Source: a virus (lineage: Duplodnaviria > Caudoviricetes). From it: a stretch of DNA of 64,000 bases. The stretch lies in the IMG/VR virus record IMGVR_UViG_2811995091_000080, positions 19,460 to 83,459 of that record, one strand, 5' to 3'. Below the pieces are notes generated by a model, which saw only the letters and a list, made by a program, of their open reading frames with translations, did no database searches and was not told where the DNA came from. Shown in pieces: positions 6,945-31,736 of the stretch. The position numbers and the translations under genes are program-made. How positions within the stretch are numbered: position 1 is the first letter of the stretch; every line of letters begins with the position of its first letter.

Positions 6945-9066
6945 CATTCAACTGGTTATGGACGCCAACGAGCGAGTCATCGGGCTTGGCGACGATACGG
7001 CTGAGGCTGCCCGCCAAGCAGTGAGGGCAGAAGCGGAAGCCGACCGCGCAGAAGCGCAGGCAGACCTTGCTGCAACGCACGCGAACACGGCGGGGAATTA
7101 TGCCGAGACGGCACGCTCCCTTGTCGGTGGTGCTGTTTATGAGGACACGACTGCGGGCCTCGCCGCCACTGTAGACGGCGAGTTTTTCGTAGTCGCGAAC
7201 GACACCGAACACGCCCTGTATCGCAACGATAGCAGCTCGGCGGTTTTCGTGCGCGACCTCGCACCCGACAATTACGTCACGCCGGAAATGTTTGGCGAGG
7301 TCGGCGCGGGCGCAGACGACAACGCGCTTTTCACCGCAGCGGTTGCAAGCGGGAAGCCCGTACGCGCGATGGGTAGCACCTACCAGCTAAACCCGATGGA
7401 GTTCACCAGCGCGGTGGACATTGAGTTTGGTTCGCAGACCGAAATCCAGAACCTACAGGCTTCCGGTCCGAAGAAAGCGACGATTACCGTCAAGGGCGGG
7501 GTCACAGGGCCGCTGGTCACGGTTTCGTCCTTCGATCTCATCAATGCGGGCGGCACCGTAACCGCACTAACCATTGGCCAGCTTTCGCGCATCATCAATG
7601 TTGCCGATGCAAGCAGCTTTGCGGCGGGCGATGTTGTGCGTATTTCGGAGAACGACCCGGCCACCACTTCGACCAGGAAGGGGACTGCTGGCGCGGAAAC
7701 GCAGGACCGCAACTATCGCGAGTTCGCAACGATTGACTCCATCGCCGGTAACAAGATCACGCTGCGCGAGTTTGTCCGGTGGCCCTACACTGCGGCAAAG
7801 TCGCTCAAGGTGCAGAAGGTCAACTTTGTCGAGAACCCGCGCATTGTCGGCGGCAAGTGGACCGGTGGCATTGGGGGCGGCGGCGCGCTGGCTTTCGAGT
7901 TCTGCCGCCACGGCAAGCTGTGTGATGACATTCACGTCGAAGGCAATTCCGAGGCTGACCGCTTCGGCGGCGCATCCGTCACTGTCCGCGACTGCTGGGA
8001 AGTCGAGCGCGGTTCGATCTACGCCAAGTGGTGCCTTTTCACCGCCCTGACCGAGCGCAATCAGGCGAGCATATTTGGTCGCATTCGCGGCAAGCGGACG
8101 CAGAACGGCGGCTCGATCCAGAGTGGTGATATTCTCTCCAATTTCGCAGAGATCGTGCAGGACGCCCCCGGCGACGACAATGGCGACGGTATCGGCGTTT
8201 CCAACGGGTTCCGGGGGAACACGGTCGGCTCGTTCATTATGTCGGGTGCGAATTGCTACGGAATGTGGCTGCGCCAAGGCTGCGACGACAACACTTTCGT
8301 TTCGTTCACCAGCATCAACGGCATCACGCTCGGCATTCAGGTCTACGGCAACCGTAACACCTTCAGCAACGTCCACATTCGCGGCCATGCTTCGGGCGGC
8401 CTTCTGCTCGCTGGCGACGACAACCAAGCGCACGTTGACATCGAGGTGCAGGGACAGGCGGTCGGGCTTGGGCCGAGCAGCAGAGGCAATCGCGTCACAG
8501 GGCGCGCGATTTCTACCGGTGTGGGGGTAACGTCTTTCGACCTCACAGTCTCGACTGGCGTTACCGACAGCTACGTGGACATCCAATCCGGGCCGCGCGG
8601 CATCAGTTATGCGGCGGGAGTGCTTCCGCACGCCAGCAACACCTTCTTCCTTCGCGGCCCGAATCCGCATGTCGTCAACACGCTCCGAACCGACCGAGGG
8701 TATCAATGGTCTGGATATGTGACTGTTACCGGCGGGGCCAAGATACTTGAGGTGCCCGAGCGCAAACCGGATGGCACATGGGGCACCAACGGGCTTTACG
8801 AAATCCAGCCTACGGCGGGCGATGCCGCCAATGTTTATCGCATCCGCCTGCAATTGTCGTCCACGCTGGCCGATGTGCGAAGCGAGTACGAGGTTATCTC
8901 TCGGCAGGGTGCGTTCACCATCCGCACAATCCATGAAGGTGCCGGGACTTACGCGGCCTTCGCGCCGAAACTGCGGGCAGCGACCGGCACCAGCGGGCCG
9001 ACGCTTGAGATTTACCGAACCGAGACGGGGGCTGCTCCCACCATCGTTTACGTCGAGAAGTATTAA
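6937..9066 (+). CDS. Tail spike / receptor-binding protein with predicted right-handed beta-helix (depolymerase-like), copy A
   Basis: 'YVTPEMFG..GA..DD..A...A' pectate-lyase-3-like entry motif, then G/N/I-rich beta-helix-like repeats; first ~27 aa shared with 51172..52878. Confidence 0.75.
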   Translation: MPSIQLVMDANERVIGLGDDTAEAARQAVRAEAEADRAEAQADLAATHANTAGNYAETARSLVGGAVYEDTTAGLAATVDGEFFVVANDTEHALYRNDSSSAVFVRDLAPDNYVTPEMFGEVGAGADDNALFTAAVASGKPVRAMGSTYQLNPMEFTSAVDIEFGSQTEIQNLQASGPKKATITVKGGVTGPLVTVSSFDLINAGGTVTALTIGQLSRIINVADASSFAAGDVVRISENDPATTSTRKGTAGAETQDRNYREFATIDSIAGNKITLREFVRWPYTAAKSLKVQKVNFVENPRIVGGKWTGGIGGGGALAFEFCRHGKLCDDIHVEGNSEADRFGGASVTVRDCWEVERGSIYAKWCLFTALTERNQASIFGRIRGKRTQNGGSIQSGDILSNFAEIVQDAPGDDNGDGIGVSNGFRGNTVGSFIMSGANCYGMWLRQGCDDNTFVSFTSINGITLGIQVYGNRNTFSNVHIRGHASGGLLLAGDDNQAHVDIEVQGQAVGLGPSSRGNRVTGRAISTGVGVTSFDLTVSTGVTDSYVDIQSGPRGISYAAGVLPHASNTFFLRGPNPHVVNTLRTDRGYQWSGYVTVTGGAKILEVPERKPDGTWGTNGLYEIQPTAGDAANVYRIRLQLSSTLADVRSEYEVISRQGAFTIRTIHEGAGTYAAFAPKLRAATGTSGPTLEIYRTETGAAPTIVYVEKY

Positions 9067-30360: not shown

Positions 30361-30656
30361 AACAGGCGGGAAGGAATTGAGGATGGTGAAGAGTTTGCTG
30401 ATCGGCATTGGGATGGGCTTCGTCACCGGGACAGTCGGCCATTGGTTCGGACTGAATACGGTCCAGACCTTGTGCCTGACTATTCCCGCATACCTCGCCG
30501 GGGTGTCGGTCATGTGGCCCCGCGGGAGCGCCGCCTAATGGCTGAGGACATACTGAAATACCAAGCAGGCCGAGAGGCAGCAATACGCGGGGATAAGCGC
30601 GACGCACGCAAGCATTCTGACTGGTTGGAAGGCTATGATGCAGTGGCAGGAGATAG

Positions 30657-31403
30657 GTGATGGAAGAAGTGCGCGCCTTGTCGATGTTTTCCGGGTGCGG
30701 CGCGCTAGATCTCGGTCTGGAGCGGGCAGGAATATCTGTCGTCGCGCAGTGCGAGATAGAGCCGCACGCAATCGGGGTGCTTGGAAGGCACTGGCCCGAT
30801 ACGCCGAACCTTGGGGACGTCCGAACGGCACCCTTTCACGAAGTCACAGCAGAAATGGTCGCTGCCGGCTTCCCTTGTCAGGATATAAGCAATGCAGGAA
30901 ACCGCGCCGGAATTGAGGGTGAACGCAGCGGGCTTTGGTCCGAAGTCGTGCGAGCCATTAGCCTGGTACAGCCGCAGTGGGTCTTGCTGGAAAACGTGGC
31001 AGCACTGCTTAGTCGAGGATTGGGGAGGGTTCTCGGAGACTTGGCCGCGCTCGGGTTTGATGCTGTCTGGCATTGCATACCGGCTTCCCACGTTGGCGCG
31101 CCCCATAACCGCGACCGCATCTGGATCACGGCTGCTTCCCACGCCCTCGGGGGTGAACGGTGGGCGAAACCATACTGTCGGACGCTTGGACGAATGGGGC
31201 GGGAGCAGCAATCCGTTCCGTGGGACCGAGATTGGCAAAGTGCGCTGTGCGAGCTTCGAGGAATGGATGATGGGTCTGCCTATCGGGTGGACCGAATTGA
31301 TACCCTCCGAAACGCGGTTGTCCCGCAAATCGCGGAAACCATCGGGCGGGCTATAATCGCGGCTAATCGCGCGATCTCCACTGACACAGCGGGAAGGGAA
31401 TAG
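30657..31403 (+). CDS. C5-cytosine DNA methyltransferase, alpha polypeptide (lacks motif IX)
   Basis: Motifs I FSGCG, IV GFPCQ, VI ENV, VIII PH.RDRIW, X LRNAVVPQ. Confidence 0.9.
   Translation: MMEEVRALSMFSGCGALDLGLERAGISVVAQCEIEPHAIGVLGRHWPDTPNLGDVRTAPFHEVTAEMVAAGFPCQDISNAGNRAGIEGERSGLWSEVVRAISLVQPQWVLLENVAALLSRGLGRVLGDLAALGFDAVWHCIPASHVGAPHNRDRIWITAASHALGGERWAKPYCRTLGRMGREQQSVPWDRDWQSALCELRGMDDGSAYRVDRIDTLRNAVVPQIAETIGRAIIAANRAISTDTAGRE
30892..31356 (+). CDS. Nested +1-frame ORF: putative methyltransferase beta polypeptide carrying motif IX (start uncertain)
   Basis: 154-codon open frame entirely inside the MTase gene containing 'TWPRSG.M.SG..Y.LP', 'LLPTP' and 'FEEWMMGLPIGWT'. Confidence 0.7.
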   Translation: MQETAPELRVNAAGFGPKSCEPLAWYSRSGSCWKTWQHCLVEDWGGFSETWPRSGLMLSGIAYRLPTLARPITATASGSRLLPTPSGVNGGRNHTVGRLDEWGGSSNPFRGTEIGKVRCASFEEWMMGLPIGWTELIPSETRLSRKSRKPSGGL

Positions 31404-31406
31404 ATC

Positions 31407-31736
31407 ATGGCAAAGCAAACGGTAATTGGGCGATGCCTACGGCCCGCGCTGGCACGGCTTCGCCGCTCGACCCGCTACGCGGTTCTCGGCCTAGCTGCCA
31501 TCGCTATCGCGGGGTGTAGTGAGGTTGCCAAAGAAACTAAGGATGCAGTGGCGCTTGAGGACATGGGGGCAAAGGCGGCGTTTCGCGGTTTGGCGGAAGA
31601 TGAGTGGCGCGCGGTGGTGGTTTTCAAAGACCCCGAGACTGGCTGCGAATACCTCATCAACGATGGCACCCGAGAGGGCGGCATGACCATTCGGATCGGC
31701 AGTGACGGTCGGCCTATCTGTTCGGAGGGGAAGTAA
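31407..31736 (+). CDS. Predicted lipoprotein (DUF6440-like)
   Basis: Lipobox IAGC; DPETGCEYL..GG.T.R..DG.P.C. Confidence 0.6.
   Translation: MAKQTVIGRCLRPALARLRRSTRYAVLGLAAIAIAGCSEVAKETKDAVALEDMGAKAAFRGLAEDEWRAVVVFKDPETGCEYLINDGTREGGMTIRIGSDGRPICSEGK

Follow-up and report, generated by a model that had tools for sequence, protein, structure and literature searches.

The closest described counterpart of the locus presented here is M.EcoHK31I (E. coli HK31, YGGCCR; Lee, Kam and Shaw, 1995), which, according to two published accounts, needs both an alpha polypeptide and a beta polypeptide that is nested in the alpha gene and read from an alternate frame, with the predicted target-recognition domain in alpha and motif IX alone in beta (PMC2836561; PMC3404938). 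M.AquI (CYCGRG; Karreman and de Waard, 1990) also consists of two subunits, split within the variable region (PMC3404938). The specific DNA contacts of cytosine-5 (C5) enzymes are all made at the small domain (PMC3404938), which in M.HhaI and M.HaeIII (PDB 1mht family, 1dct; 324–327 aa) is part of the same chain as the large domain. A literature search, with subscription journals outside its coverage, returned no family-wide description of overprinted phage C5 methyltransferases beyond M.EcoHK31I and M.AquI.

The locus lies in a 64,000-nucleotide stretch (the whole of which is referred to as the window) of an 83-kb IMG/VR viral contig, and is likely to encode a two-polypeptide cytosine-5 DNA methyltransferase in which a nested beta frame would supply the recognition half together with motif IX, and alpha the catalytic half. 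Compared by published description, it is like M.EcoHK31I in being a C5 enzyme of two polypeptides with beta lying wholly within alpha in another frame. The original prediction had drawn this parallel, describing the beta polypeptide of M.EcoHK31I as being read from an alternative frame of the alpha gene, which agrees with the two accounts cited above. The division of labour appears to be unlike that of M.EcoHK31I, however, because the phage alpha is without an ordered domain between motifs VIII and X. Where alpha of M.EcoHK31I holds the target-recognition domain, the phage alpha has a 47-residue disordered-looking linker, and it is the phage beta that carries a conserved segment at the position of the variable region. 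The phage gene also differs in looking like an orphan, with no endonuclease among the neighbours screened. When beta was searched against plasmids with tblastn, six weak matches were returned, of which four fall within dcm genes and two where no gene is listed; none was a named EcoHK31I.

As with M.AquI, the locus would specify a C5 methyltransferase of two subunits divided within the variable region, but the M.AquI split is sequential and its small subunit has both motifs IX and X, whereas the phage gene keeps motif X in alpha and has its beta nested in another frame. A split of the M.AquI type was rejected for this gene, as motif X lies in alpha (31305–31325) and beta ends at 31356 in the other frame; an AquI-like partition, with beta-like sequence, IX and X in one frame, is seen in a relative, P0334. 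The large domain of M.HhaI and M.HaeIII superposes on alpha and the order of motifs I–VIII is the same, but alpha covers only about half of these enzymes.

The gene and its two reading frames

The features of the locus, in window coordinates, are as follows.

30660..31403, + strand: alpha coding sequence, C5 DNA methyltransferase large-domain polypeptide, 247 aa from ATG 30660
30687..30716, + strand: alpha motif I, FSGCGALDLG, AdoMet binding; F10, G12 and G14 invariant
30867..30890, + strand: alpha motif IV, GFPCQDIS, with the catalytic Cys; P72 and C73 invariant
30880..30883, + strand: AGGA, Shine-Dalgarno-like, in the PCQD codons of alpha, 8 nt 5' of the beta ATG
30886..30888, + strand: TAA in the +1 frame, two codons ahead of the beta ATG; upstream limit of beta
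30892..31356, + strand: beta coding sequence, nested +1-frame ORF, proposed small-domain polypeptide, 154 aa
30990..30998, + strand: alpha motif VI, ENV; the beta reading of the same bases is W-K-T
31101..31118, + strand: alpha motif VIII, PHNRDR, with H for Q; invariant in the clade
31132..31293, + strand: beta conserved core, residues 81–134, LLPTPSG ... GRLDEWGG ... FEEWMMGLPIGWT; 17 invariant columns in 43 beta homologues
31155..31295, + strand: alpha linker between motifs VIII and X, residues 166–212; conserved, modelled as disordered, overlapping the beta core
31255..31293, + strand: beta motif IX-like segment, FEEWMMGLPIGWT, assigned by pattern; an equivalent stands before motif X in P0334, L121 and L155
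31305..31325, + strand: alpha motif X, LRNAVVP, with Arg for the usual Gly; read from the sequence

The alpha frame keeps the order I, IV, VI, VIII of C5 cytosine DNA methyltransferases, and all five of the motifs that had been predicted for it (I, IV, VI, VIII and X) are visible in the sequence itself. Pfam PF00145 covers residues 6–163 (E 7.5e-38), TIGR00675 scores 106 bits (cut-off 100.65), phrog_363 (PHROG 363 'DNA methyltransferase') aligns to alpha from end to end (E 1.4e-67), and M.HhaI is matched over its residues 12–172 by a profile built from alpha plus 45 homologues (E 6e-29). A pseudogene reading was discarded, as alpha is intact and is matched along its whole length. In the ORF list the start is GTG 30657, which would make 248 codons ending at 31403, but ATG 30660 seems the more likely start; AGGAG can be read at 30648–30652, 7 nt 5' of this ATG, which shares bases with the TGA of the preceding small ORF (TGATG). 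This upstream ORF, of 72 codons (30442–30662), thus ends in a TGA overlapping the alpha ATG, and the next ORF downstream begins at 31407, three bases past the alpha stop (window 31401–31409). On this layout, alpha seems to be coupled in translation to the ORFs on both sides.

According to the ORF list, beta lies wholly inside alpha (30660–31403) in frame +1, and the 154-codon ORF that had been predicted at 30892..31356 is indeed open. Four +1-frame stops are found 5' of 30892, at 30658, 30706, 30757 and 30886, so that a beta start upstream of ATG 30892 is impossible. This ATG arises from the alpha codons AAT GCA (Asn-Ala), and beta would most likely initiate there independently, behind the AGGA within the PCQD codons. 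The same CAGGAT...AATGC arrangement at the beta start is also found in the closest relatives, among them L006, L172 and L176.

Across the family, the first beta ATG falls at alpha codon 2 in some members, at codons ~44–62 in most and at codons 75–85 in a few, including the window. As four +1 stops precede 30892, beta in the window is an N-terminally short form, and the first ~78 codons of the long-form betas are absent from it. Beta of the Pseudomonas and Vibrio phage relatives is about 232–242 aa long and almost co-extensive with alpha. In Pseudomonas phage phPA-G (L001:1245-1977) and Vibrio phage 1.291.O (L003:1254-1961), whose products have 235–242 residues, the alpha and beta ATGs are four bases apart (ATGAATGAGC), and therefore one ribosome-binding site may serve both frames. 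The deposited annotation of these two phages contains the beta frame alone, as a 'hypothetical protein', and the methyltransferase frame is left out.

An antisense ORF of 237 codons (30705–31418, minus strand) also spans the whole methyltransferase gene. As a gene it was rejected: the antisense frames are interrupted in an AT-richer Vibrio phage relative, and the ORF is therefore most likely an effect of GC content.

With regard to genome context, the gene is preceded by a ParB-like gene and one for an O-like replication initiator, and followed by those for terminase, portal and major head protein. Ten neighbouring ORFs were screened and none matched an endonuclease family, two of them being without any match. 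The gene looks like an orphan phage methyltransferase, judged from these neighbours. A second, diverged two-frame methyltransferase is present in the same 83-kb record (L005:1215-1964, about 7754–8503 of that record), upstream of the window. Its alpha is 48% identical to the window alpha, its motif X reads GN, and no stop interrupts its +1 frame over the beta core, although the wider beta match includes one TAG.

Selection on the second frame

The GC content of the DNA is 62%, and long ORFs occur in several frames. In the window alone, the beta core was stop-free in 19% of shuffles of the alpha synonymous codons (P0 0.19), which is not significant, and the case for the +1 frame as a selected coding frame therefore comes from the comparison with homologues and not from the window by itself. 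Searches with beta (tblastn) gave matches in phages of Pseudomonas, Vibrio, Microcystis, Synechococcus, Sulfitobacter and Mycobacterium, where the annotated features under the matches are either a C5 methyltransferase gene or a 'hypothetical protein', and at the tblastn loci that were read the same DNA also encodes alpha, with beta in +1. A protein database holds 495 beta homologues, mostly unnamed. Among ~200 loci gathered from viral, genome and metagenome collections, 262 of the 266 beta-profile matches (191 loci) were in frame +1 of alpha.

For the stop test, 69 non-identical genes with full-length alpha were used (34–82% identity to the window, GC 38–77%), stops were counted over the span of the beta core without each beta's own stop codon, and in the null model synonymous codons were shuffled within each gene, such that alpha and the codon content were kept. 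The +1 frame was without stops across the beta core in 66 of the 69 homologues, against 7.9 expected from synonymous shuffling; these homologues are mutually related and the counts are not independent events, though their composition and host spread are wide. The +2 frame contained 2–15 stops in every one of the 69, and in AT-rich relatives alpha and beta are the sole long frames kept. Two-frame conservation in homologues, which had been proposed as a check on the nested gene, is thus borne out.

Identity of the window to its relatives was also compared, region by region, with the shuffled expectation. Over the first 70 alpha codons, where the window +1 frame is broken, +1 identity equals this expectation (z about 0). 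Over the N-terminal half of beta, which overlies alpha motifs IV–VIII, alpha is the better conserved frame and the +1 reading is moderately above expectation (z 3–10), with the +2 reading roughly as conserved as the +1 reading. Over the C-terminal half, which overlies the stretch from alpha motif VIII to motif X, +1 identity exceeds that of alpha itself, with 0.94 vs 0.72 in L007, 0.67 vs 0.47 in the Pseudomonas phage and 0.62 vs 0.42 in the Vibrio phage (z 8–9). Synonymous sites were assessed from codon pairs with the same alpha residue, as the fraction using different codons. This fraction is 0.61 in the alpha N-terminus, 0.52 in the beta N-half, 0.16 in the beta C-half and 0.73 after the beta stop, meaning that by this measure the extra constraint in the beta N-half is weak. 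Regional conservation and synonymous sites together therefore indicate complementary constraint, with alpha constrained over the catalytic motifs IV–VIII and beta over residues 81–134. The comparison of homologous sequences shows both frames to be under purifying selection and, by the same comparison, the nested +1 ORF to be a real coding frame.

Structure, motif X and the part played by beta

AlphaFold modelled alpha confidently at residues 1–165 and 213–247, with pLDDT <50 over residues 166–212, yet this is the best conserved stretch of the alpha alignment. A stretch that is conserved but unordered fits the reading that it is a passenger whose sequence is dictated by the other frame. In Foldseek, the alpha model aligned with M.HaeIII (1dct) and M.HhaI over ~161 columns at an rmsd of 1.9 A, with a TM by target of 0.45, and therefore matches the large domain only. 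As modelled, alpha is the M.HhaI/M.HaeIII large domain only, with no small domain in the chain.

The prediction for beta alone was poor (pLDDT 54, pTM 0.24), and this could be because beta folds on binding or because the alignment is too shallow. Residues 7–92 of beta match PHROG 1008 'DNA methyltransferase' (E 4.3e-17). No Pfam or NCBIfam family was found for beta, nor for its relatives P0005 and P0334; the beta profile returned nothing from the PDB sequences but chance glycolipid-transfer-protein matches (E 0.15 or worse), aligned with E. coli Dcm in hhalign at a probability of 0.04, and a search of the ESM Atlas gave only unnamed, mainly viral clusters. As profile comparison with Dcm and with PDB chains yields nothing, the assignment of target recognition and motif IX to beta draws on pattern, on position and on relatives in which the segments are in frame. 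The motif IX-like sequence that had been predicted in the +1 ORF is present, as FEEWMMGLPIGWT at 31255–31293. In P0334, the beta-like protein continues in the same frame via WMMGLP into a GN-type motif X, and in the actinomycete genomes L121 and L155 the WMMGLP segment and motif X are both in the alpha frame, with the L121 stretch weakly colinear with E. coli Dcm motifs IX–X (34% identity, E 0.38).

The LLPTPSG...GRLDEWGG segment of beta is placed where monomeric enzymes have their variable, target-recognising region. Given that alpha has no ordered domain there and that C5 enzymes make their specific DNA contacts at the small domain, we infer that beta is the recognition half. Hence, whilst the original prediction assigned motif IX to the nested gene, and the motif IX-like pattern is found there, beta seems to supply more than this, namely the whole small domain, with target recognition as well as motif IX.

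A further part of the original prediction concerned the Arg of motif X, LRNAVV having been read as a trade-off between frames or as an inactivating change. This is not upheld, because R217 and N218 do not vary among 46 homologues of 54–82% identity. The codon detail given with it is correct, in that alpha CTC CGA AAC is read as TCC GAA in beta and a GGA codon would give TCG GAA, a change that is silent in beta; the beta frame does not force Arg in motif X. In the wider set of 69 genes, motif X has RN in 12, always with a DEWGG-type beta core, and GN in 56, always with other cores, a co-occurrence that may reflect shared descent. The motif X helix is modelled with high confidence, pLDDT being high from residue 213 on. 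On the evidence of these alignments, RN is a conserved trait of the clade and apparently no lesion, though Arg at the place of the canonical Gly may bear on AdoMet binding.

Partition among relatives, rival readings and wider meaning

Several relatives distribute the motifs over their frames differently. In L202:783-1655 (P0247 metagenome contigs), alpha motif I is in frame with beta in one 284-aa ORF, and motifs IV–X are in the -1 frame behind a stop, which could represent either a three-way re-partition or a gene that depends on frameshifting. P0003, P0010, P0022, P0253, P0258 and P0260 look similar to this arrangement. P0257 (381 aa) begins with an N6-adenine Dam domain (PF05869, E 1.6e-24), which is followed in the same frame by LPTPSG...GRLDEWGG...WMMGLP, and may be either a true fusion or a dam gene that continues into the beta frame of a C5 gene lying downstream. 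L121:592-1671 and L155:592-1668 have an LLPTP-repeat region that is open in +1, with their IX-like segment and motif X read in the alpha frame, and a single frame of P0334 runs through the beta-like N-half, the LLPTP repeats, IX and X. The partitions of P0334, L121 and L155 therefore indicate that the frame of IX and X is not fixed in the superfamily.

Three other readings of the locus were weighed against that of a two-polypeptide enzyme. If no beta were made, the open +1 frame would be a by-product of alpha conservation, of GC-rich codon bias, or of a nucleotide or RNA constraint. The open frame is unremarkable in the window alone, as described above, several of the beta 'motifs' are forced by alpha motifs (ENV giving W-K-T, for example), and +2 is about as conserved as +1 in the N-half of beta. 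This reading is nevertheless hardly credible in view of the number of stop-free loci, which far exceeds that predicted by shuffling and includes genes of 38–50% GC, the conservation of +1 over the beta C-half, which beats that of alpha itself, and the +2 frame, which is interrupted in all cases; in addition, the beta frame was called independently by gene callers and annotators in Pseudomonas and Vibrio phages. It is also very improbable that the locus specifies a single chain, whether through a programmed frameshift that joins the frames or as a frameshifted pseudogene of a monomeric enzyme, since alpha of the window is uninterrupted and is matched throughout by phrog_363 and by 46 close homologues, a TAA stands just ahead of the beta ATG, and two shifts would be needed to restore I–VIII, TRD, IX and X. 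What speaks for a single chain are the database proteins, P0003, P0010, P0247 and others, in which the alpha N-terminus (motif I, or I–IV) runs in frame into beta, the P0247 arrangement being found in seven contigs, for one of which four samples are recorded; by inspection, however, there is no slippery heptamer at the L202 junction.

The remaining reading accepts beta as real but takes alpha alone to be a sufficient methyltransferase, with beta tuning specificity or stability, or acting in regulation or counter-defence. Such an accessory role would be in keeping with the lack of profile similarity between beta and any solved methyltransferase or Dcm, with the beta-like C-terminal segment on the N6-adenine Dam domain of P0257, which suggests a portable module, and with the very variable N-terminal length of beta. 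It is considered unlikely, as alpha models as a large domain only and has no ordered target-recognition segment, at a position where C5 enzymes make their specific DNA contacts, and as in relatives the beta motif directly adjoins motif X.

The preferred reading is thus that of a two-polypeptide cytosine-5 DNA methyltransferase, probably belonging to a temperate phage. Alpha would form the Rossmann-type large domain, with motifs I–VIII for AdoMet binding and catalysis and a return through motif X, and beta would provide what monomers place between motifs VIII and X, that is, the target-recognition segment LLPTPSG...GRLDEWGG and motif IX, FEEWMMGLPIGWT. The two polypeptides would assemble into an active orphan methyltransferase, which may mark the phage or the host genome and so shield it against restriction. 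We infer from the foregoing that beta is translated, binds alpha and reads the DNA, and that both chains are needed for activity, as well as this biological role.

More broadly, the chances are about even that the locus represents a very large group of C5 methyltransferases, borne by phages and prophages and mostly unannotated, in which the whole small domain is overprinted in +1 on the catalytic domain and the partition between frames has been repeatedly reshuffled. If this is true, M.EcoHK31I would be the only studied example of a common design and no oddity, and many annotations of a 'short orphan Dcm' would describe half an enzyme. Should beta be the recognition subunit, annotation pipelines that keep one frame give half an enzyme, as with the beta frames deposited alone and with the genomes elsewhere in which alpha alone is called. 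Cloning of alpha alone would then fail, and assignments of phage methylomes to genes would be incomplete.

With ~460 doubly coding bases, conserved in phages with hosts from Vibrio to Mycobacterium and at GC contents of 38–77%, this would be among the more extensive conserved overprinted pairs in bacterial viruses, and the complementary constraint on its two halves makes it a natural system in which to study two proteins that share one sequence. A naturally split family of this kind would also extend the few heterodimeric C5 methyltransferases that are used for targeted methylation (PMC2836561).
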